DNA of 64,000 nucleotides from an uncultured Gammaproteobacteria bacterium. Lineage in GTDB: Bacteria; Patescibacteriota; Microgenomatia; Daviesbacterales; UBA10151. The notes under the pieces are model-generated. The model ran no database searches, was not told the DNA's origin, and saw only the letters and a list, made by a program, of their open reading frames with translations. Shown here one piece after another: positions 30,889 to 57,435 of the stretch. Each line of letters begins with the position of its first letter. Positions within the stretch are counted from its first letter, which is position 1. A program made the position numbers and the translations under genes. The stretch covers positions 8,734 through 72,733 of the forward strand of contig CAZYPW010000007.1 of assembly GCA_964649615.1 (NCBI GenBank), given 5' to 3'.

Positions 30889-31458
30889 ATGAGTAATTTT
30901 AAAGACTTTTATCATTATAAAGGCGCTGAGTTAACACCTTCTGAAAAGGTGGAAAGAAAAGTTATAGAAATTTTGCTTAACTCACAACTTCCTGATAGCC
31001 AAAGAGAAAGTTCTATTGTCTGGGAAATAAAACACTCTTCAGGTTGTGTACAAATTGCCAGAGTTTTAGCTCAAAAAAGAAACCTCGATGCTGATATTGC
31101 TGCAACAGCATCACTACTTCATGATATCTATGTAATTGTGGAAGGAAAATATAAAGATCATGCAAAACTCGGTGCACCGATAGCTGAAAAAATTCTGAGA
31201 GAAATAGGTGGATTTTCAGATGGGGAAATAAAAACAATAACTGATGCGGTCGCACACCATAGTGAAAAAGAAGTGTATACGGATAATCCTTATATAGAAA
31301 TAGTTAAAGATGTTGATGTGTTTGACTGCTCATTTTATAAAAATGCTGAAGGGTATTACAGATTACATAAAAGTGGAGAAATTGTTAGAGAGTATGAGAA
31401 TAGAATTAAAAAGGTGAGAGAAGAATTCAATCTGCCTCCTGACCCAATTTTCAGATGA
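30889..31458 (+). CDS. HD-domain phosphohydrolase (YqeK-like)
   Basis: H...LLHDI...H...D metal-binding pattern, ~190 aa. Confidence 0.65.
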   Translation: MSNFKDFYHYKGAELTPSEKVERKVIEILLNSQLPDSQRESSIVWEIKHSSGCVQIARVLAQKRNLDADIAATASLLHDIYVIVEGKYKDHAKLGAPIAEKILREIGGFSDGEIKTITDAVAHHSEKEVYTDNPYIEIVKDVDVFDCSFYKNAEGYYRLHKSGEIVREYENRIKKVREEFNLPPDPIFR

Positions 31459-32897
31459 ATAGTATACCAGATCCAATTTTTAAAAAAGATTTAGATAAAA
31501 TTTCCTGGAAAAAAATTTATGATAGGGAATATGGAGTACAGTATTCTGAAGCAGCTGTATCTCTTTTGGCTTTTGCGAGTTATCATTTTCCTAAAACTTC
31601 CGTTGCACAAGTTATTATCCCCGGAGAAGGTAACAACACCTCATTTTATATTGATGATGTTTCTTGGCTAGAACTGGTAGAAGGTCTTAATAAGAAATAT
31701 ACTGTTAATGTAAAGCAATTAGAGAAATACGAGAGACAATTTTTATTTGATGGAAAAAATTATTTAAAAATTACTAAAAAAGTATCTAAACTCAATTTAA
31801 AAAAATTAACTAACAAACAACTACTTTCCCTATTTTTAGATCACCAGGACAAGAGGAATAAATACTCAGTGTTTGCTTGGTCTGCTTTTATTTTAAATAA
31901 CTATGTAGCAGACAGAGCAGTATCGATTTTAGAGCCTTACATTAAAAAGCATAATTTAGTAAATCAAAAACAGAGAATTATTGACGCTTTGTTTACACCT
32001 GAAAAACATGCGGCAGTATTACAATTACAACAAGAAGTAGAAAAACATAATGGAAAATTAACAAATAAACAGTTCGATACATTGTATGAGAAATTTAACT
32101 GGCTTTCTTGTTTAGATATTCAAAATAAACCCTGGAGTAAAGAGGAATTTAGACAACACATAAAATCATTTACTAAATCAGATAAAACAAACAAAATATC
32201 ATTTAGAGAAATTGTTAAAAAGTTAAAACCCTCAAAGAAAGATTTAGAATATCTCCAAATGGCAAAAAGGTTTGTTTATATAAAGGATGCAAGAGATGAC
32301 TTTAGGCGAGAAAGCGTATTTTATTCAATCAATTTATGGAAAGAAATAGGAAGAAGGATGGGAATTTCAGCAGAAGATACGAGCTATTTACAAGATTCGG
32401 AAATAATAGCCTTTTTGAAAGACAAGAATAATACTGATTTAGACAAAATTTCTCGATCGAGAAAAAATGGTTTTGTAATATATATTGGTTCCAATAAAAA
32501 AGTAATTTGTTCACAAGGAGACCATATACTTGCTGCTCTTAAGTTATTTAAATTAGACTTTGAGGAAGAGAAAACACAAGAGATAAAAGGAAGAGTTGCA
32601 TCAAAAGGGTTGGCGAAAGGTAATGTAGCAATTGTTAAAGGTGTAAAGGATTTGGATAAAGTAAAAATGGGAGATATCTTAATTGCTGTTACTACTCATC
32701 CGGATTATGTTTCGGCTATGAGGAAGGCTGTGGCAATTGTGACGGATGAAGGTGGAATTACATCTCATGCTGCGATAGTTTCCAGAGAATTTGGAATTCC
32801 TTGTATTGTTGGAACAAAACTTGCAACAAAAGTTTTAAGGGATGGAGATATGGTAGAAGTTGATGCTAACAGTGGGGTTGTAAAGAAACTAAATTAA
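31455..32897 (+). CDS. two-domain protein: unknown ~380 aa N-terminal region plus C-terminal PEP-utilising-enzyme swivelling phosphohistidine domain
   Basis: C-terminus GDILIAVTTHPDYVSAMRKAVAIVTDEGGITSHAAIVSREFGIPCIVGT (GGxTSHAAI catalytic His motif). Stop overlaps the next start (TAATG). Confidence 0.65.
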   Translation: MNSIPDPIFKKDLDKISWKKIYDREYGVQYSEAAVSLLAFASYHFPKTSVAQVIIPGEGNNTSFYIDDVSWLELVEGLNKKYTVNVKQLEKYERQFLFDGKNYLKITKKVSKLNLKKLTNKQLLSLFLDHQDKRNKYSVFAWSAFILNNYVADRAVSILEPYIKKHNLVNQKQRIIDALFTPEKHAAVLQLQQEVEKHNGKLTNKQFDTLYEKFNWLSCLDIQNKPWSKEEFRQHIKSFTKSDKTNKISFREIVKKLKPSKKDLEYLQMAKRFVYIKDARDDFRRESVFYSINLWKEIGRRMGISAEDTSYLQDSEIIAFLKDKNNTDLDKISRSRKNGFVIYIGSNKKVICSQGDHILAALKLFKLDFEEEKTQEIKGRVASKGLAKGNVAIVKGVKDLDKVKMGDILIAVTTHPDYVSAMRKAVAIVTDEGGITSHAAIVSREFGIPCIVGTKLATKVLRDGDMVEVDANSGVVKKLN

Positions 32898-33634
32898 TGT
32901 ATATTAAACTTTTTAATGAAATTTCCAAAAATGATGTAAAGGAGGTAGGTGGTAAGGGTGCATCTTTGGGGGAAATGACTAATGCTGGTATCCCAGTCCC
33001 TCCTGGATTTGTAATTACCACAGAAGCTAATGGTGTAATTCATGAAGAAGAAATATTAAAAGCCTTTGATACGCTAAATACTGAAAGAGTTTCTGTTAGG
33101 TCATCAGCAATCGCTGAAGATTCTTTAAGAGCTTCCTGGGCAGGGCAGTTAGAAACTTATTTAAATGTTACAAGAGAAAATCTAATTGAAAGTATTAAAA
33201 AGTGCCGGGAATCAGTAAAATCAGAAAGGGCAAAAACATATGCCAAGGAATATAGGTTATCAGATGATCAACTGGCTATGGCAGTAGTTATACAAAAAAT
33301 GGTCGATGCTAAAGCAGCTGGAGTTATGTTTACTGCTAATCCTGTAACTTCTGATAAAGAAGAAATAATGATTGAATCAGTTTTGGGATTAGGAGAGAAA
33401 CTTGTACAGGGATCAGTTACTCCGGATAACTTTATTGTTGATAAGGGAAGTGTAGATATAAAAAGTAAAGATTTACAAGGAGAGCAAACCATAGCTGATG
33501 AGGTAGTTAAGAAATTAGTAGAACTGGGAAAAAAGATAGAAAAGCACTGGGGAAGCCCACAAGATATAGAGTGGGCAATTGATACAGATAATATGATTTG
33601 GATCCTTCAATCAAGACCGATTACCAATTTGTAA
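32897..33634 (+). CDS. stand-alone PPDK_N-type ATP/nucleotide-binding domain protein (pyruvate phosphate dikinase / PEP synthase / rifampin phosphotransferase N-domain family)
   Basis: VGGKGASLGEM, VRSSAIAEDSLRASWAGQLETYLNV, AVVIQKMVDAKAAGVMFTANPVT, QDIEWAID...ILQSRPIT. Confidence 0.75.
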   Translation: MYIKLFNEISKNDVKEVGGKGASLGEMTNAGIPVPPGFVITTEANGVIHEEEILKAFDTLNTERVSVRSSAIAEDSLRASWAGQLETYLNVTRENLIESIKKCRESVKSERAKTYAKEYRLSDDQLAMAVVIQKMVDAKAAGVMFTANPVTSDKEEIMIESVLGLGEKLVQGSVTPDNFIVDKGSVDIKSKDLQGEQTIADEVVKKLVELGKKIEKHWGSPQDIEWAIDTDNMIWILQSRPITNL

Positions 33635-34496: not shown

Positions 34497-34766
34497 TTAT
34501 TTAATCTCAAATTCTGAAAAGTTTTTAAGGGGATCTTTTCTTATTTCTACTTCTTCGACTTTGGCCAAAGTAGGGCTTTTGTGGCACCATGCCAAGAATT
34601 TATTTAAATTTTCCTTTTCCCCTTCAGCTTCTATATAAACAGACCCATCCTTTTCATTTCTGGCAAAACCTTTAATAGATAATTTATCTGCTTGGTCTTT
34701 GGCAGATACTCTAAAAAATACTCCCTGAACTAACCCTGTGACTTTAATATTTAAATGTTTTTTCAT
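34497..34766 (-). CDS. acyP: acylphosphatase
   Basis: VTGLVQGVFFRVSAKDQADKLSIKGFARNEKDGSVYIEAEGE. Confidence 0.85.
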   Translation of the reverse strand: MKKHLNIKVTGLVQGVFFRVSAKDQADKLSIKGFARNEKDGSVYIEAEGEKENLNKFLAWCHKSPTLAKVEEVEIRKDPLKNFSEFEIK

Positions 34767-35554
34767 GTAAAATCCAAAACTAAAGGAAGATGATCAGAAA
34801 CCTCTTCTTCTAAAACCTTAAAATCTTTCAAATTGATATCTGAAGAGATAAAAGCATAATCTGCAAATTTTTGGAAATTTGGGGTTTTAGCATAAGGGCT
34901 TAAGTCACTTCTAGTTCTTGGGATATTATATTCTTTAATTAAATTTCTTAAATTCTCCTCAAATAGATTAATACACCTTGTATTGGGTAAGAGATTAAAG
35001 TCTCCAACAATTATCTTTGATCCAGTTTTAGAATTCATAATTTCTAATACTTTTTTGGTCTCCTTAAATCTATTTGGAGAATCAAGTTTATTAAAAGGAT
35101 ATGCAGTACCATGAAAGTTAAAAACCGAGAATTCTCTACCATCTACACTAAAACTAATATATTGAAGTGGAGTGGCCAGATTAGAAAAATCTGGCTTTAA
35201 AGCTCTAAAAGAATGATCCTGATATATAAAATAATCCTGATGGGAAGTTATTTTAATAGAATCTTTAACAAAAATAGCAGAACCATACTTTAGATCAAAT
35301 TTTACTTTGTGAGGCTTTATATCAGTATCAAATCCTTCTAAAGTTGGAAAGTAAAATACCCTAAATTTTGGTAAAATAATTCTTATTTCCTCAAGTAGAT
35401 TGGTCTGAATACTTTTCTGCAATTTTTTATCAGATTTTGTGGAATATATTTCTTGAAAACAGAAGATATCAGTATCTTTTGACTGATGTTTGATAAACTG
35501 GATTAGTGGTCTATACATTTTCCCACCCCAAGTATTTAGCGAAATAAGCTTCAT
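34763..35554 (-). CDS. endonuclease/exonuclease/phosphatase (EEP) family protein, tandem paralog 1
   Basis: MKLISLNTWGG...DIFCFQEI...GDFN...SDHLPLVLDF. Confidence 0.75.
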   Translation of the reverse strand: MKLISLNTWGGKMYRPLIQFIKHQSKDTDIFCFQEIYSTKSDKKLQKSIQTNLLEEIRIILPKFRVFYFPTLEGFDTDIKPHKVKFDLKYGSAIFVKDSIKITSHQDYFIYQDHSFRALKPDFSNLATPLQYISFSVDGREFSVFNFHGTAYPFNKLDSPNRFKETKKVLEIMNSKTGSKIIVGDFNLLPNTRCINLFEENLRNLIKEYNIPRTRSDLSPYAKTPNFQKFADYAFISSDINLKDFKVLEEEVSDHLPLVLDFT

Positions 35555-35558
35555 AATT

Positions 35559-36338
35559 TTATGAAAACTCCAGAATCATGGGTAGATGATCAGATATCTC
35601 AATATCTGGAACCTGAAATTCTAAAACTTTTACATTAGGGGATACTAAAGTGTAATCTGCAAATTTGTCACCCCAGGTATAAAGCTTACTTCTGGTAGTA
35701 GGAATTTTATTTTCCTTAATTAAATTTATTAAATCTCGTTCTAAAATTTTTAGACTCTTGGTATTTATATTTAAATTAAAATCTCCACATAATATTTTTG
35801 CTTCCTCTTTATATTGAGCCAAAAAGTTAACAACTTTTTCAGACTGGCTAATTCTTGATGAATGATCTACCTTTTTCCCTTTTCTCCATACTCCATGTAA
35901 GTTACAAACGATGAACTTTTTATTTTGGTGGGCGAATGTTATATATTGCATATTTCTTGGTAGGGTATTTAAATCTTTGGGATTAAAACTATCTTTGGTA
36001 CGAAATACAAAAAAATCCCGGTATGAAGTAACTGGTAATTTTTTATTGATAAATATAGCTAACCCCCAGGAAAGATTAAAATTTATAAAATTAGGTTGAA
36101 AACTACCAGCTATGTAATTATCTACACAGGATGCAAAGTATCCTCGGTATTCAGGTAAGATTTTACAAAACTCCTCATACAGATTTAATCTAAAGCCTGC
36201 ACTTTCAGTAATATTAGAAGTTGTTTTAAACACTTCTTGCAGACAAAAAATATCAGTATCTTGTGAGTATTTCTTTATGAAATCCATTAAGGGTTGATAC
36301 ATTCTTCCTCCCCAGGTATTTAGCGCAATAAGCTTCAT
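35559..36338 (-). CDS. endonuclease/exonuclease/phosphatase (EEP) family protein, tandem paralog 2
   Basis: MKLIALNTWGGRMYQPLMDFIKKYSQDTDIFCLQEV...GDFN...SDHLPMILEF. Start set at the internal Met aligned to paralog 1. The ORF-track N-terminal extension is the reverse translation of the tRNA below. Confidence 0.7.
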   Translation of the reverse strand: MKLIALNTWGGRMYQPLMDFIKKYSQDTDIFCLQEVFKTTSNITESAGFRLNLYEEFCKILPEYRGYFASCVDNYIAGSFQPNFINFNLSWGLAIFINKKLPVTSYRDFFVFRTKDSFNPKDLNTLPRNMQYITFAHQNKKFIVCNLHGVWRKGKKVDHSSRISQSEKVVNFLAQYKEEAKILCGDFNLNINTKSLKILERDLINLIKENKIPTTRSKLYTWGDKFADYTLVSPNVKVLEFQVPDIEISDHLPMILEFS

Positions 36339-36379
36339 ACATAGAATTATACTCGAGTAGGTGGTAAAATTTAAGACTA

Positions 36380-36451
36380 CGGAGTGTAGTTCATCGGTAG
36401 AACGCTCGGCTGGGGGTCGAGAAGTAGGAGGTCCAATTCCTCTCACTCCGA
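36380..36451 (+). tRNA. tRNA-Pro (anticodon GGG)
   Basis: Hand-folded cloverleaf. 7-bp acceptor with C1:G72 and A73 (bacterial tRNA-Pro identity elements). U8, D-arm GUUC/GAAC with G18G19. Anticodon loop C-U33-GGG-G37-G. T-stem GGAGG/CCUCU. T-loop UCCAAUU (C at position 55). No encoded CCA. Confidence 0.7.
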
Positions 36452-36545
36452 CTTTTGTTATGTATATCCATGTATCCATACATAAATACACTAAGTAATT
36501 TTTGGGGTATTGACACCTTTGGGATATATTTGGTAATTTTAATTT

Positions 36546-38969
36546 ATGGCACAAACTTCAAATAACAACGAAGCTAAAAAAGCTGCAATTTCTGCTGCTA
36601 TGGCCCAGATTCAAAAAACTTACGGGACTGGTTCTATTATGAGGCTTGGTGAAAGAGCGGAAAAAATGACCACCCAGGTGATCTCCACAGGTTCTATTGC
36701 TTTGGATTTGGCGCTGGGAGTGGGAGGTCTTCCCAAAGGCAGGATTATTGAGGTTTATGGGCCTGAGGCGGGAGGAAAATGTGTTTCAACAGATACTATT
36801 GTTTTTACAGAACATGGAATGTTACCTATTGGTGTTTTCGGTGATTTATTTAAACCAGGCTTTCAAAAAAAGAATTTAAGCATATATTCTGAAGGTGGAA
36901 CTGCTACAACAAGCCACTTCTATAATAGTGGTTTTAAAAAAACTATTAAGATAAAAACTGCGTATGGTTATGAATTAGAGGCAACGCCTAATCATAGAAT
37001 TAGAATTATAGATAAAAAAGGTGACTACGTTTTTAGACGTTTAGATAAGTTGAAAGAAGGTGATCGGGTCGCTATACAGAGAGGCCAGGGGTATTTTGGT
37101 CAAGGTGTAAATTTATCTAATTTCAGATATATATTATCAAGGTACAATAACGGAAAGGAGTATGATGCTCCTTTAACAATTGATTCTCAGTTAGCGAAGT
37201 TAATGGGATATTTAGTTGGTGATGGCACATGTACATTAACAGGTTTGAGTAAAAATACTATTAGCATAACTATTGCCGATGACGAAGTAGCAGCAGATTT
37301 TATAGAAGTTTGTCTAAATATATTTGGTGAAGAACCAAAGGTGACTTTAGATAAACGTAGTAAAAATACTAAACAGTTTCGTATCCATAACGCCAAAGCT
37401 CGTTCATTTTTAGCCTATTGCGGTTTAGATTATAACTCCGCCGCAGATAAGCATATTCCTTACTCAATTATGCAGTCACCAAAACCGGTTGTAACCTCTT
37501 TTTTATCAGCTATATTTGAAACAGATGGGTGTTTCGTAACTAATACTATCGAATACTGTTCCAAATCAAAGGTTCTGGTTAGACAGATCCAGACTGTGCT
37601 ATTAAATTTTGGGATTATATCTAGGTTAAAAACTAGGATAGTAAGCGATAAGGAATACTTTTATCTTTACATTGATGGGCGTAACGATTTAGAGATATTT
37701 GCTCAAAATATTGGTTTTATTTCAATTAGAAAACAAAATAAATTACTGTCTTATACAGAAAAAAAAGTTAGTCAATATCAAAGTAATTGTGATACTTTAC
37801 CTATAAATAGAAAGATCCAGCAGTTAATGATAGATTATCGTAAAGGTGTAGGTACTACTACCAGAGAACACTGGGATGTAGTGTATGACTATCTACCTCA
37901 AACATCAGGATTTTCTATGCTGACATATCCACGCCTTAATAAAATATTAAAGACGTTTATTTCGGCTCAAACATTGGCAATTTACCAACACCTAAAGGAA
38001 ATATACTCAAAAAATATCTTTTATGACAGAATTGTCCGTATCTCTCCCTCTAAGTCAGTGGTAGTAGATTTTACTGTACCTTCTACAGCCTCCTTTTTTG
38101 GTAATGGATTTATTAATCATAATACTAGCATTTGCTTACATGTTATTGCAGAGGCTCAAAAAAAGGGTGGGGTGGCAGCTTTTATAGATGCAGAGCATGC
38201 GCTAGACCCACAAAGGGCCCAAAAAATTGGGGTGAACTTAGATGATCTTTTAATTTCCCAGCCTGATACAGGGGAGCAGGCCTTAGAAATTGCGGAGAGC
38301 CTCATACGCTCCGGGGGGATTGATGTTTTAGTGATAGATTCTGTAGCGGCATTGGTTCCCAGAGCTGAACTGGAAGGTGAGATGGGTGATGCGGTTATGG
38401 GGATGCAAGCCCGTTTAATGTCGCAAGCATTACGTAAGCTGACAGGAGCTGTTTCTAATACAAACACAATCATTATTTTTACAAATCAGCTGCGTCAAAA
38501 AATTGGGGTAATGTTTGGAAATCCGGAAACAACAACAGGGGGATTAGCTCTTAAGTTTTATTCATCAATAAGACTGGACGTCAGGAAAATTGAGAATATA
38601 AAGTCTGGTGATATGGTGGTGGGCTCAAGGCATAGAGTTAAAGTGGTTAAAAACAAAGTGGCTCCCCCATTTAGAATTGCAGAATTTGATATGGATGAAA
38701 ATGGAATTATTCATGAAGGAGAGATTTTGGATGTTGGTATAGAATTGGGGATTTTAACCAAGTCCGGAGCATTTTTAAAATGGGGAGAGAATATGTTAGG
38801 ACAAGGTAGAACTGCAGCTATAGATTATTTAAAGGCTAATAAAAAAGAAGCGGAAAAATTAGAGAAAGAAATAAGGGAAGCTTGGGGCAAACAAAAGGAA
38901 GGCAAAGAGAAAATAGTAGTAGGACCGCAAGAAGAAGAGGGCGCAGGAACCGTAGAAGAAGCCGTATAA
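36546..38969 (+). CDS. recA: recombinase RecA precursor containing a 448-aa intein (mature extein about 359 aa)
   Basis: Extein [30 protein letters not shown] | intein | [29 protein letters not shown]... L2 loop and C-terminal domain intact. Confidence 0.92.
36780..38123 (+). mobile_element. intein with LAGLIDADG homing-endonuclease domain inserted in the RecA Walker A P-loop
   Basis: Starts with Cys after GGK. Block B TPNHRI. LAGLIDADG-like motifs [10 protein letters not shown] and [12 protein letters not shown]. Ends ...NGFINHN followed by +1 Thr. In-frame with the extein. Confidence 0.85.
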
Positions 38970-38978
38970 TATTCTTTA

Positions 38979-39686
38979 ATGCCCAAAGTTACTTTATTAG
39001 AACCACAAAAGTCGTCCAAAGGACGATCTGCCTATGGCGGAAAAAACCCACACAGATTTAATATTTTTTTAGATGGTACTTTTGCTTTCGGAGCGGATGA
39101 GGATTTAGTTATTGAGCATCGGTTAGTGGTGGGAAAAATACTTGACACATCCGATGTGAAAAAACTGTTATTTGAGGTAGAAGTTGGTAAGCTGATGGAA
39201 CGAATGTATCGGTTATGGAATATTAGACCTAGATCAGAGAAAGAAATAAGAGATTATTTAAAAAGTTTATCTTTTAAAAGAAAAATTAAGGATCAAGAAG
39301 ACATTTCTGATGCAGCAGTTGAGCTTTTAATAAATAAATTAAAACAAAAGGGGTTATTAAATGATGAACAATTTGCTAATGTCTGGGTGGAAGCAAGAAG
39401 AAAAAGCAAGAAAAAGGGCAAGATTGCCCTAAAGATGGAACTTATTCAAAAGGGGATTAATAGAGATATTATAAATGAGGCAATTAAACAGTCTTCTGAA
39501 GAAGAACAACTATTAGCTGAGAGGGCTTTAGAGAAAAAAATAAAGGTTTGGGAAAAATTGCCTTACTTGGAATTTAAGAAAAAAGGCATGGAGTTTTTAT
39601 TAAGGCGTGGATTTGAATATGATGTAATCAAAAGTACAATTGAAAAAATCTTACAAAAGAGATACAATAGCAGAGAAGAAGAATGA
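38979..39686 (+). CDS. recX: RecA regulator RecX
   Basis: Immediately downstream of recA. N-terminal RFNIFLDGTFAFGADEDLVIEHRLVVGK resembles Firmicutes RecX. Repeated three-helix motifs with KGLLNDEQFA. Confidence 0.75.
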   Translation: MPKVTLLEPQKSSKGRSAYGGKNPHRFNIFLDGTFAFGADEDLVIEHRLVVGKILDTSDVKKLLFEVEVGKLMERMYRLWNIRPRSEKEIRDYLKSLSFKRKIKDQEDISDAAVELLINKLKQKGLLNDEQFANVWVEARRKSKKKGKIALKMELIQKGINRDIINEAIKQSSEEEQLLAERALEKKIKVWEKLPYLEFKKKGMEFLLRRGFEYDVIKSTIEKILQKRYNSREEE

Positions 39687-39767: not shown

Positions 39768-41138
39768 ATGCAACGTTCATTTGGGCCAATTAAATCTGAT
39801 CAGCCTTCTGTTCCATCAACTGGGGGGGACCTGCCTGCTGGCAGGCAGGATTTTTCACAAAAAGAAGCAGAACTGGCAAAACGCGAAGGCATTTTGGAAG
39901 AAAGAGAAAGGCAAATCTCAGAGAAAAATAAGACTCTGGATGATAAATTAGATCAAGTCGAAAAAGCTAGATTAGATCTCATAGAAAAGTTAGAAAAATC
40001 CTCCAAGATATCCTCAGATGAGGCAAAGAAAATTATTTTAGAACAAGTTGAGAAAGATTTAGCAACTGAAGTATCCAAAAAAATAAAAGAAGCAGAAGAA
40101 GAAATAAAACTCTCAGCTGATGAAAAAGCTAAAGAGATTTTAGCTGAAGCAATGCAGCATGGCTTTACTGATGTAATTTCAGAGTTTACTACTTCACGTA
40201 TTAATTTATCAGATGAAGAAGTAAAAGGTAGAATCATTGGCAAAGAAGGAAGAAATATTAGGACATTTGAACAAGCAACAGGGGTGGATGTAATCATGGA
40301 TGATGAAATCCCTAATAGTCTAATTATTTCTTCTTTTGATTCTGTCAGGAGGGAAATTGCCAAAGTTGCCTTAGAGCGGCTTATTGCGGATGGAAGAATT
40401 CAACCCCAAAGGATAGAAGAAATTGTTCAAAAAACGACTGAAGAATTTGAAAAAATTATGCTGCAAGCAGGCGAGAAACTTTGCAGCGATGGAGGAGTAT
40501 ATAATTTACCTGCTGATTTGGTGAAGCTTTTAGGCCGTTTTAAATATAGATTTTCTTTTGGCCAAAATTTAATACAGCATACTTTAGAAGAGTTAAGAAT
40601 TGGGGTAGCTTTGGCCAAGGAGATTGGGGCGGATGTTAATATAGTAAGATTGGGTTGTTTACTGCATGATATTGGGAAAGTGGTTACAGAAGGAGATGAA
40701 GGCACACATGTTGATAAAGGGGTTGCTGTTGCCAAGAAATTCCAGATGCCAGAGAAAGTGGTTAATTGTATTGCAGAACATCATGAAGATAAGCCTTTCT
40801 CTTCCATAGAATCTGTATTGGTATATATAGCTGATGCTATTTCTGGTGGTAGGCCTGGAGCCAGGCATGAGAATGTAGAAGATTACATCAAAAGAATGGT
40901 AGACTTGGAAAATATAGCCACCTCTTTTGAGGGTGTAGAAAAGTGCTTTGCAGTCCAAGCAGGAAGAGAAGTTAGAGTAATTGTGATGCCAGATAGAATT
41001 TCAGATGAGCAGTTGCCAAAGTTAGTGCATGATATTGCCCAGAGGATCTCTAAAGAAGTGATGGTTCCAGGTGCAGTTAAAATTACAGCTATAAGAGAGA
41101 CAAGAGTAACTGAGACAACTATGACCACTCCACAATAG
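39768..41138 (+). CDS. rny: ribonuclease Y
   Basis: Coiled-coil N-terminal region, KH domain (IIGKEGRNIRTFEQATGVD), HD domain (LLHDIGK). No N-terminal TM helix; an in-frame stop lies 3 nt upstream of the ATG. Confidence 0.85.
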   Translation: MQRSFGPIKSDQPSVPSTGGDLPAGRQDFSQKEAELAKREGILEERERQISEKNKTLDDKLDQVEKARLDLIEKLEKSSKISSDEAKKIILEQVEKDLATEVSKKIKEAEEEIKLSADEKAKEILAEAMQHGFTDVISEFTTSRINLSDEEVKGRIIGKEGRNIRTFEQATGVDVIMDDEIPNSLIISSFDSVRREIAKVALERLIADGRIQPQRIEEIVQKTTEEFEKIMLQAGEKLCSDGGVYNLPADLVKLLGRFKYRFSFGQNLIQHTLEELRIGVALAKEIGADVNIVRLGCLLHDIGKVVTEGDEGTHVDKGVAVAKKFQMPEKVVNCIAEHHEDKPFSSIESVLVYIADAISGGRPGARHENVEDYIKRMVDLENIATSFEGVEKCFAVQAGREVRVIVMPDRISDEQLPKLVHDIAQRISKEVMVPGAVKITAIRETRVTETTMTTPQ

Positions 41139-50952: not shown

Positions 50953-51328
50953 GGTGCCTAGGAAGCGAGTAAGCCAGATTCTGTTTTAGATGATATTTAT
51001 CTTCAGTGTGATTATTAGTCACTCTGATCCGCCTTATGGCGAGATGCTCCTTACTTTGATTATCAAGCGAGCAGCTTAATCAATTCTAGGATTGCAGCAG
51101 GGAGGATTGCCCTTCGACTCGCTTCGCTCACTCAGGGTTATAACCCTGAGTATTTGAAACTAATCGAAAACCCGTTAGCTTGGTCGTTTCATTCGGCGCA
51201 ACCCGATTCGTCACTGTTGCTCTAAACTTTGTCTTACGACCATCCGCCTTTCGGCGGACACCTTGCTCTATGCTGTCTGGACTTTCCTCTCCGCCAAAGG
51301 CGGAGTAATCATCCTTCTTCCTAGGCTT
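50953..51328 (-). ncRNA. rnpB: RNase P RNA (bacterial type A)
   Basis: The reverse complement carries a 10-bp P1 (GCCUAGGAAG/CUUCCUAGGC), P3 hairpin CUCCGCCUUUGGCGGAG, P4 5' strand GAGGAAAGUCCAGAC, CAUAGAGCAAGGUG, and P4 3' strand ACAGAAUCUGGCUUA. Confidence 0.85.
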
Positions 51329-54890: not shown

Positions 54891-55499
54891 ATGAGATTAA
54901 GAAAGCTAGGTAACATACCCACCTTAATAGTTTTAGTGGCGGTTATATCAGCATTGGCTATGTTGATACTACCACAATCTCCATATAGGATTTTTAATCG
55001 TTATCAAGTTGAACAGCAGCTTAAAAGATTGCAGATAGAGTTGGATGAAACCAGTAAGAAGTTAGAGCAAGCTACATCTAGTGCAACCCCAGTTTTTACC
55101 AAAGAATTTGTCAAAGTAACTAAAGTTATTGATGGAGATACAATAGAGATAGAGGGAGGGTATCATGTCAGGTATATTGGTATTGATACCCCAGAAACAG
55201 TACACCCAAGCAAACCTGTCCAATGTTTTGGTAAAGAAGCTAGTAATAAGAATAAGGAGCTAGTAGAAGGTAAGATAGTTAGATTAGAAAAAGATATAAC
55301 AGAGATTGATCGTTACGGGAGATTGTTACGCTATATTTGGATAGATGATACTTTAGTTAATGAAGTTCTAGTAAAAGAGGGATATGCTAATTCTTATACA
55401 TACCCACCTGATGTAAAGTATCAGGATAGGTTTATCAAAGCCGAAAGAGAAGCAAGGGAAAGTAAAAAGGGATTATGGGCTAGTTGCCCTGTCTCTTAG
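54891..55499 (+). CDS. membrane-anchored thermonuclease (staphylococcal nuclease, SNase-like)
   Basis: VIDGDTIEI...RYIGIDTPE...YGRLLRYIW...KKGLWA. Confidence 0.85.
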
Positions 55500-55503
55500 T
55501 AAC

Positions 55504-55833
55504 ATGGATAAAAATACAGTATTTGTTGTTGGTTTCTGGGTAGTTTTAATAGGAGGGATAATTTGGTGGAATCTTGCTAGCAGTGATTCATCAAAGACAA
55601 AGTCAGTAAAGCAGTACAATACCCCAACCTACGATCTTAATGTTGATGATTCTTATGAGAGATATGATGATCCAGAAACAGAAAGGTCATTCTCATCAGG
55701 AGATTATGACTGTTCAGACTTCTCTACACAAGATGAAGCACAAGAGTTCTTTGAAGATGAGGGTGGCCCAGATGATGACCCTCATAATTTAGATAGAGAT
55801 GGAGATGGGATAGCTTGTGAAACATTACCATGA
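55504..55833 (+). CDS. membrane-anchored Excalibur calcium-binding domain protein
   Basis: C-terminal [38 protein letters not shown]. Confidence 0.75.
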
Positions 55834-56360
55834 ATGAGAAACTAGCCTTGCTTTTAACTTCAGTACGATCCCATATTACTCTTACAAATATGCTTTTAGT
55901 CACAATTCTAGTGTTAGTCTTTTCTGGATTCTATATTTCAGCTCCTCAATTTAAGAATTTCATTGATAACATTGGTTATTCAACTAAAGCCGAAAGGGTT
56001 GGTACAGCTACTTTCATCTGTACTTATGGGAAGTTAACTAAAGAGGAATATGAAAGTAGAATAGATGAGCTTAATAAGCAAATAGAAGCTGAAAAATTAA
56101 AAGATAAATTACTTAATATGGATTTAATTACATTGAAGGTTGATCTTGAGTCACTACAGAGAGAAAGCTATTTAACTACTAAGAAGGAAGATATTGATGT
56201 AATTAGAACTAGGAAGTTCAGGTTTGGATTCACAACTTATGACTCCTACGGATATGCAGGAGAAATACCAAAGGATGGTATGGATCACAAATGTAAATGC
56301 GAAAAGACTGGAATAGGTGGTCTGTGTGAATGGAAACCTATCAATAAAGTAGATAATTAA
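55830..56360 (+). CDS. hypothetical membrane-anchored coiled-coil protein
   Basis: N-terminal TM, central coiled coil. No recognised domain. Confidence 0.3.
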
Positions 56361-56878
56361 TGATATCTGTAGATAGCCACATTCTTAATCATACTACCTT
56401 CAAAATCTTTTGAAATTGAGATGATAATATCTTCAATCTCACTATAATCCAATGAATTATGTTGCTTATTACCTAACAGTCTATCTGATAAATGTTCAAA
56501 TATGGATTTCTTAATTTTAGGTAACTTAATACTTCCAATGGCAACTGACTTTGCTTCATATAATTCGGCTAGGATAAAAGCATTCCTCAAGGATTGATGG
56601 AGGCCAATATAATTAGTTCCAACATCTTGTATATGGTCATAAATTGGCATGAAGATAATATTTTTAGTCTGAAGGTTATATCCTTTGACTATAGCTGTAT
56701 TGCCAATTTCACAGTAGCCAATAGCAGAGAGTTCTCTAACTAAATCTTGCCCACCTCTATCTAAAACCTTCCCGACTATACCCTCCTTCTTATAAGTTAA
56801 ATCTGAATCACAAGGTATGATAATAATGTCACCAGTAAAATCACCTATACTGTCTGTGCATATTTGGATATTCATCAA
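56357..56878 (-). CDS. hypothetical protein, possibly macro-domain-like
   Basis: Weak pattern GDIIIIPCDSDL...GIVGKVLDRGGQDL...GNTAIVKGYNL..KNIIFMPI resembling macro domain blocks. Confidence 0.3.
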   Translation of the reverse strand: MMNIQICTDSIGDFTGDIIIIPCDSDLTYKKEGIVGKVLDRGGQDLVRELSAIGYCEIGNTAIVKGYNLQTKNIIFMPIYDHIQDVGTNYIGLHQSLRNAFILAELYEAKSVAIGSIKLPKIKKSIFEHLSDRLLGNKQHNSLDYSEIEDIIISISKDFEGSMIKNVAIYRYH

Positions 56879-56903
56879 TAGTTATAATTTTTAGAACAAG
56901 AGC

Positions 56904-57392
56904 TTACTTGAATAGCTTCTGAGTAGGACACAATTGTTCTACACAGGAATAATAGAATTGATCTTTATCTTTTGAAATTAAATAATCCCAATTCTCATTT
57001 CTTTTTATCTGTCTGATACCCTCGTAATTACATTTAGGGTCTCTACCTTCTGTAAGATTTCTGTGTAAGCTCCCTGCGAAGTCAGTATTATCACTATATC
57101 CATAAGTTTGTTTGCAGTAAGCATCATCCCTCTGAAATAAAGCTTGCCAATTCTGCTTTGATTCTAAATCATCATGCCTTGACCAAAAGACACAGCCAGC
57201 AATACCTGAGTGGTTAGGATAGGTGGGATATTCTTTTTCAATACATTGTTGCTGATTGAATGTAAAGAAATCCTTATTGAGTTGGAAACCGAGAAGTCTT
57301 AGGATAACTATCCATAGTAGAATGAATAGACTTAGTCCAAATAGAGAATAGACAGTAACTCTTAATACTTTTCCTCTAAAAAACTTATTCAT
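56904..57392 (-). CDS. hypothetical membrane-anchored Cys-containing protein
   Basis: N-terminal TM. No recognised domain. Confidence 0.3.
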   Translation of the reverse strand: MNKFFRGKVLRVTVYSLFGLSLFILLWIVILRLLGFQLNKDFFTFNQQQCIEKEYPTYPNHSGIAGCVFWSRHDDLESKQNWQALFQRDDAYCKQTYGYSDNTDFAGSLHRNLTEGRDPKCNYEGIRQIKRNENWDYLISKDKDQFYYSCVEQLCPTQKLFK

Positions 57393-57435
57393 AATTATAT
57401 TATCTCATTGAAAGTAGTATACATGGAATACTGAA

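Follow-up and report, generated by a model that had tools for sequence, protein, structure and literature searches.

The window, which is the whole 64-kb stretch of DNA that was analysed, carries on its forward strand a recA gene that encodes an intein within its ATP-binding motif. The gene is preceded by a tRNA-Pro gene and two divergent EEP-family genes, and is followed by recX and the gene encoding RNase Y. The features of the locus are:

36380..36452, + strand: tRNA-Pro(GGG), 94 nt upstream of the recA start
36546..38969, + strand: recA precursor ORF, 807 aa plus stop, 89.4 kDa (TIGR02012 recA, 4.9e-142, in two stretches split by the intein)
36546..36779, + strand: N-extein, 78 aa, whose last residues are the Walker A residues GPEAGGK; aligned to E. 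coli RecA up to GPESSGK
36780..38123, + strand: intein, 448 aa, 51.0 kDa, pI 9.3, consisting of a Hint splicing domain with a nested LAGLIDADG endonuclease
38124..38966, + strand: C-extein, 281 aa, whose first residue is the +1 Thr (the Walker A Thr, nt 38124-38126)
38979..39686, + strand: recX, downstream of recA (Pfam RecX_HTH1/2/3)
39768..41138: RNase Y gene (rny), after recX

Across its 807 codons the recA frame contains no stops and no frameshifts. After translation, GPEAGGK occupies precursor residues 72-78 and is directly followed by Cys1 (residue 79), while the terminal HN falls on residues 525-526. The intein thus corresponds to residues 79-526; it ends in …FINHN and is followed by TSICLH. 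Its junctions (arrows mark insertion or splice points) read GPEAGGK↓C…HN↓T and lie between the Lys and the Thr of the RecA Walker A motif. An original prediction, made from the sequence, had placed a 448-aa intein at 36780-38123 at exactly this position, and translation confirms it to the base, with the junctions at precursor residues 78/79 and 526.

With the 448 aa removed, the flanks form a contiguous RecA, as the original prediction had anticipated. The joined extein (359 aa, 38.4 kDa) matches Pfam RecA as a single stretch over residues 14-268 (7.5e-129), plus RecA_C, and in a HMMER alignment to the solved E. coli RecA both halves meet exactly at GPESSGK↓T. The precursor scores 473 bits against the TIGR02012 RecA equivalog (cut-off 325). 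The insert alone matches Pfam Intein_splicing (1.4e-14), LAGLIDADG_3 (4.4e-19) and TIGR01445 intein_Nterm (1.1e-8). The intein, LAGLIDADG and RecA profile scores are all far beyond chance.

In a database search with the joined extein, the 120 best matches share 83-94% identity with it, and those that are named belong to Candidatus Daviesbacteria, Microgenomates or Patescibacteria. The gene order recA-recX-rny also occurs at two other loci (L002 and L003), and EEP-recA-recX occurs at a third (L001). Based on the recX and rny neighbours and the names of the nearest RecA proteins, we interpret the gene as the housekeeping recA of a Daviesbacteria-like bacterium of the candidate phyla radiation (CPR). 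The host is thus probably a Candidatus Daviesbacteria-like member of the Microgenomates, a taxonomy taken from the nearest RecA names. Public assemblies yielded no exact match to the 807-aa precursor. L001 is labelled 'uncultured Gammaproteobacteria', which we doubt and consider a probable case of mis-binning, because its RecA is 86% identical to that of the window and the EEP-recA-recX synteny is common to both. An HMM of the intein family, run over the whole window, identified no second intein and no free LAGLIDADG gene. We also considered an RNA intron and rejected it, since the only Rfam matches are the upstream tRNA-Pro and, away from the locus, an RNase P RNA, with no intron among them.

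The intein was aligned with homologues from 15 other proteins, and invariance was scored in a 14-sequence alignment. The splicing blocks are located as follows:

36780..36782, + strand: block A nucleophile Cys1, invariant in 14/14 aligned inteins
36984..36995, + strand: block B, TPNH (T69, H72); T69 invariant, H72 at least 90% conserved
38061..38108, + strand: block F, VVDFTV…FFGNG, intein residues 428-443, with D430; D430, F439, N442 and G443 invariant
38118..38123, + strand: block G, terminal His447-Asn448, invariant

In the 14-sequence alignment C1, T69, D249, D430, H447 and N448 do not vary, and conservation is at least 90% for H72, D148 and G149. The block set of a class 1 intein is therefore complete (C1, T69-x-x-H72, D430 plus the GNG region, H447-N448 and Thr+1), and every splicing element that had been claimed (Cys1, TxxH, HN and the +1 Thr) is present and conserved on the family alignment. 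A Hint fold is recognised by Foldseek in an AlphaFold2 model, and Intein_splicing and TIGR01445 both score above their cut-offs. The splicing domain of the model resembles the Mxe GyrA intein, with an rmsd of 1.8-1.9 Å (Foldseek).

From what is known of P-loop NTPases, a 51-kDa insert that separates the Walker A Lys from the Thr precludes normal ATP binding by RecA. The exteins are nevertheless 94% identical to an intein-less Daviesbacteria RecA, and relative to the intein-bearing L001 they show a dN of 0.10 and a dS of 2.4 (ratio ~0.04). This strong constraint argues that RecA must function and, an unspliced RecA being useless, that the intein splices. We thus anticipate that splicing is autocatalytic.

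The remainder of the intein encodes a putative homing endonuclease and an adjoining helical module:

37170..37769, + strand: LAGLIDADG endonuclease core, ~intein residues 131-330, with approximate bounds (LAGLIDADG_3 over 238-312, model secondary structure and Foldseek)
37197..37226, + strand: LAGLIDADG motif 1, intein residues 141-149; candidate catalytic D148 at nt 37221-37223
37500..37529, + strand: LAGLIDADG motif 2, intein residues 241-250; candidate catalytic D249 at nt 37524-37526
37770..38009, + strand: helical module between the endonuclease core and block F, ~intein residues 331-410

The AlphaFold2 model of the intein, built on the family alignment, has a mean pLDDT of 91.6 and a pTM of 0.91, and its alpha/beta secondary-structure pattern is in keeping with a LAGLIDADG core. 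In a Foldseek search of the PDB the best match is the TliVMA intein (7QSS; E 5.9e-29, TM 0.72/0.75), followed by PI-PfuI, PI-TkoII and PI-SceI. I-DmoI, I-Tsp061I and I-WcaI match the endonuclease part of the model, with TM scores to target of 0.58-0.73. This part has the pseudo-dimeric alpha-beta-beta-alpha-beta-beta-alpha fold and also aligns to PI-PfuI and TliVMA. Both of the LAGLIDADG motifs in the original prediction are present, and their helices each end in an acidic residue (D148 and D249). We judged the intactness of the endonuclease on these two Asp, which are retained in all RecA copies aligned over the motifs (9/9).

Between the window and L001 the endonuclease core has 62% amino-acid identity at saturated synonymous sites, which suggests that it is under selection; dS being saturated between the available intein copies, constraint on the core was judged from retained identity alone. 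The helical module forms four helices in the model (343-356, 362-371, 383-392 and 400-411) and has a dN/dS of ~0.07 relative to L001, with dS near saturation. A reasonable guess from the model is that this module makes extra DNA-binding contacts.

The best 120 RecA matches are all ~351-390 aa long and thus intein-less. Related inteins occur at the same RecA site in nine proteins, several of them from named CPR phyla (Daviesbacteria, Taylorbacteria), and at locus L001. The intein of L001 is 64% identical to that of the window (extein 86%) and that of protein P0002 is 59% identical (extein 85%). Six more distant full-length RecAs (P0003-P0007 and P0009) have inteins that are 50-54% identical. 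The remaining two inteins, in P0001 (63%, BLASTP) and the Taylorbacteria protein P0008 (50%), lie in proteins deposited without N-exteins. GenBank already holds similar proteins, annotated as 'recombinase RecA'. Empty-site alleles match the joined junction of the window at 71/90 nt (L002) and 66/90 nt (L004), with a conserved core GG(A/T)GGAAAA↓ACTA. Around the insertion point the empty recA site of L002 or L004 reads …GGACCGGAAGCAGGAGGAAAA↓ACTACCCTGTGTTTGCATGTT….

This patchy distribution suits a mobile element. Among nine intein/extein pairs compared, the intein of the Daviesbacteria trio diverges ~2.8 times faster than the extein, whereas in the P0004/P0006 pair intein and extein are equally similar (71.0% and 71.6% identity), which hints at a more recent intein transfer. 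The distance comparison is only suggestive and is compatible with homing or loss alike. Since intein and extein similarities broadly co-cluster, vertical inheritance combined with precise losses, and not ongoing homing, could account for much of the distribution. Our reading is that of a homing intein with an apparently intact endonuclease that has probably been resident in the lineage for some time. The original prediction of a probably active homing endonuclease is plausible given the conserved Asp, the constrained endonuclease domain and the patchy distribution; we put the chance that the enzyme is active in homing at present at only somewhat better than even.

We therefore favour, with a probability of roughly 0.85, a housekeeping recA that carries a full-length class 1 intein at the P-loop site known as insertion point c, an intein that splices, homes and belongs to a P-loop clade. 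Translation would yield an 89-kDa precursor that is presumably inactive, as its ATP site is split. Self-excision of the Hint domain would then begin with an N-S acyl shift at Cys1, proceed through trans-esterification onto the +1 Thr and Asn448 cyclisation, and end with an O-N shift, leaving a free intein of 51 kDa and a 38.4-kDa RecA whose GPEAGGKT is intact. The case for splicing is built on the complete set of conserved blocks and the strong purifying selection on the exteins. The free two-motif LAGLIDADG endonuclease could cut intein-less recA at the P-loop sequence, and the element would be copied in by double-strand-break repair. Homing is postulated because the catalytic Asp are intact, the endonuclease domain is constrained and the distribution is patchy. 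The element would be part of a large intein clade that prefers P-loops, at GK↓T/S, across a wide range of unrelated ATPases.

It is possible, but in our view rather doubtful, that the intein splices while its endonuclease is no longer active in homing, being either inactive or kept for a maturase-like or structural role. Its persistence would then be explained by the need for a base-exact deletion to remove it from an essential motif. Such a history would fit the broad co-clustering of intein and extein groupings and the restriction of known intein-bearing alleles within the Daviesbacteria-like group to three (the window, L001 and P0002). It would also fit a composition that is fully host-like, with an intein GC3 of 0.237 within the host gene range of 0.22-0.33 and no sign of recent foreign arrival, and a scan of IMG/VR viral contigs that found no close phage-borne relative of the intein. 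However, both catalytic Asp are kept in all nine RecA copies aligned over the motifs, and the endonuclease core retains 62% identity where dS is saturated. With the 120 closest RecAs intein-less, purely vertical descent needs many independent precise losses, and the near-equal intein and extein identities of P0004/P0006, set against the ratio of ~2.8 in the trio, suggest a more recent transfer.

Conditional splicing has been proposed for the Pyrococcus horikoshii RadA and mycobacterial DnaB inteins. The intein could accordingly be both selfish and a switch, with temperature, redox state or metal ions gating splicing so that RecA is controlled post-translationally. It shares its P-loop position with the P. 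horikoshii RadA intein, whose splicing is regulated by the extein (PMC4513877), it contains seven Cys (Cys1 included), and selective retention has been argued for P-loop inteins (PMC4760082). We nonetheless regard a switch as unlikely, as no sequence feature points specifically to regulation, there is no specific similarity to the P. horikoshii RadA intein (E 0.04-0.1), and the intein is dispensable, given that most close relatives are without it. The view of the locus as a non-working gene, whether a recA that is disrupted or decaying or a chimera from metagenome assembly, is already effectively refuted. The sequence is probably from a metagenome-assembled genome, and the deposited gene calls of P0001 and P0008 begin within the intein, but the 807-codon frame is unbroken and the recA-recX synteny is conserved. 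Moreover, at least eight contigs from independent assemblies show the same architecture with full junctions, and the exteins are 94% identical to functional-looking RecAs and have a dN/dS of ~0.04.

An exhaustive HMMER search of 1.84 billion representative proteins recovered 7651 relatives, 542 of them at E ≤ 1e-30. Among 168 full-length intein copies in the best matches, insertion is at GK↓T/S in 79/168 and at K↓T/S in 28/168. Outside RecA, the nearest inteins (36-39% identical) interrupt RuvB, a Clp-type AAA protein and DnaX at GK↓T; a terminase and an SNF2 helicase also host inteins at GK↓T. Three further RecAs have inteins at the same site that are only ~30% identical. A P-loop intein hot-spot across ATPases was described by Novikova et al. 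2016, MBE (PMC4760082); conceptually the intein of the window is the same, and it adds CPR examples. We consider it unlikely that one intein lineage has jumped fairly recently between the P-loops of RecA, RuvB, the Clp-type protein and DnaX, or that the intein serves as a post-translational RecA gate in a streamlined bacterium.

Five RecA/RadA insertion points were catalogued by Topilina et al. 2015, NAR (PMC4513877). One of these, insertion point c, is the P-loop, designated c1 in archaeal RadA and c2 in bacterial RecA, and invasions of this site were treated as independent. For c2, inteins at residues 65-486 are listed in E. coli, Enterobacter and Salmonella; sites a and b are those of the mycobacterial RecA inteins (PMC4513877). 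The original prediction was right that the insertion position is that of archaeal RadA inteins, which use the same point c, and that mycobacterial RecA inteins sit elsewhere. A search for the nearest intein and its site class likewise supports class c, but the implied novelty of this class for a bacterial RecA does not stand, as c2 had already been described (PMC4513877) and we recovered an intein with the coordinates 65-486. This intein is found in the RecA of Escherichia phage Cyrano, with the junction GPPSAGK↓C…SHN↓T. By tblastn, the intein of the window has matches in 245 plasmid records, mostly from Escherichia, Klebsiella and Enterobacter, as well as in phages; among the plasmids listed, most are ~108-114 kb and typed non-mobilizable. 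In the literature searched for inteins in CPR/Patescibacteria we found no description of RecA inteins.

The element is a real, well-formed intein and a further example of an already described kind. It changes no concept, since P-loop insertion, independent RecA/RadA invasions and patchy distribution were all described earlier. It does add an apparently intact P-loop intein in the housekeeping RecA of a CPR bacterium, and it clarifies the record, in that the published 'E. coli RecA' P-loop intein has its matches, among the records found, in RecA-like genes of phages and plasmids. It is also a candidate source of a new LAGLIDADG specificity aimed at a very conserved DNA site, and a candidate Thr+1 splicing domain for protein engineering.

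Among known systems, TliVMA (7QSS), PI-PfuI (1DQ3) and PI-TkoII (2CW7) are the best PDB matches in both structure and sequence (phmmer 5.8e-15 for 7QSS) and share the Hint plus double-LAGLIDADG architecture. They differ in sequence (15-21% identity) and in their hosts, which are a V-ATPase A subunit, a ribonucleotide reductase and a DNA polymerase. PI-MtuI (site a, also a LAGLIDADG intein) and the M. leprae type (site b) interrupt the same host protein family at residues ~252 and 205-211, at the monomer-monomer interface, and have no specific similarity to the intein of the window (E > 0.2). The archaeal RadA c1 inteins, such as that of P. horikoshii (PDB 4E2T/2LQM), occupy the homologous position in the orthologous recombinase with Thr at +1, but the P. 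horikoshii element is a mini-intein that lacks an endonuclease, with no significant similarity to the intein described here (E 0.04-0.1).

The enterobacterial c2 inteins share the Lys↓Thr insertion point, a full-length LAGLIDADG endonuclease, Cys1 and Thr+1. The Cyrano c2 intein (422 aa, as against 448 aa) is homologous to that of the window over its whole length (E 2e-42), with an identity of 26.8%. In the records found, the c2 host gene is a divergent RecA-like gene on phages and plasmids, 35% identical to the window extein, whereas the window host is a chromosomal housekeeping recA beside recX in a CPR bacterium. With 26.8% identity to c2 and no significant similarity to the c1 mini-intein, the intein groups with neither published lineage, and based on these comparisons we assign it to the same site class as c2 but to a separate intein lineage.

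The closest relatives of the intein outside RecA are 36-39% identical to it and lie at the P-loop GK|T of RuvB (database proteins P0010, P0011 and P0024), of a Clp-type ATPase (P0036, AAA_2/ClpB_D2-small) and of DnaX (P0034). PolA hosts one of these relatives. In this family-A DNA polymerase (P0032) the intein junction is RRIAK|C…HN|T, a K|T junction that is not within any P-loop.

GC content is approximately 0.43-0.46 in the exteins (the RecA flanks) compared with approximately 0.29-0.35 in the intein (36780..38123). This drop is no indication of foreign origin, because the GC3 of the intein (0.237) is equal to the genome background and it is the exteins that are the GC-rich outlier, being conserved sequence rich in Gly/Ala.

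The record of L001 (CAYSNN010000002.1), a locus with a RecA intein at the identical site, is titled 'uncultured Gammaproteobacteria bacterium'. The taxonomic label of this MAG looks wrong, given that the RecA it encodes and the Daviesbacteria-like RecA of the window share 86% identity and that the local gene order is common to both. As in the window, an EEP-family gene is encoded upstream of recA in L001. The features of this region in the window are:

34763..35554, minus strand: tandem EEP-family paralogue
35559..36554, minus strand: long ORF, EEP-family gene region
36380..36452, plus strand: tRNA-Pro(GGG)

The first 70-odd codons of the long ORF overlap the tRNA on the opposite strand. This N-terminal stretch is spurious, and the true start of the EEP-family gene is probably MKLIALNTWGG, at about nt 36335.

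Gene starts also bear on two RecA relatives annotated by NCBI as 'recombinase RecA', P0001 (Daviesbacteria) and P0008 (Taylorbacteria). In both, the deposited start is a Met within the intein, and the protein records therefore lack the N-extein and, with it, the N-terminal half of the Walker A motif. The probable cause is an artefact of annotation or a frameshift upstream.

Elsewhere, the window encodes:

31455..32897, plus strand: 480-aa ORF with a PEP-utilizers mobile domain at its end
32897..33634, plus strand: 245-aa ORF matching the PPDK_N ATP-binding domain
50954..51324, minus strand: bacterial class A RNase P RNA (Rfam RF00010, 108.5 bits)

The stop of the 480-aa ORF overlaps the start of the 245-aa ORF. 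The two domains are in separate genes, and their order is opposite to that in PEP synthase and PPDK.

A tblastn search with the intein of the window hit the enterobacterial intein at c2, the bacterial RecA P-loop insertion point, with near-identical matches in 245 plasmid records, mainly from Escherichia, Klebsiella and Enterobacter. Among the matches listed (H16-H30), the majority of plasmids are ~108-114 kb in size and typed as non-mobilizable. On many of these, the intein region has no annotation, or none beyond 'LAGLIDADG family homing endonuclease'. Topilina 2015 (PMC4513877) gives residues 65-486 for the c2 intein of 'E. coli RecA', and the RecA-like gene of Escherichia phage Cyrano (L005, OV696614.1, CDS 55065-57404) holds an intein at these same coordinates.
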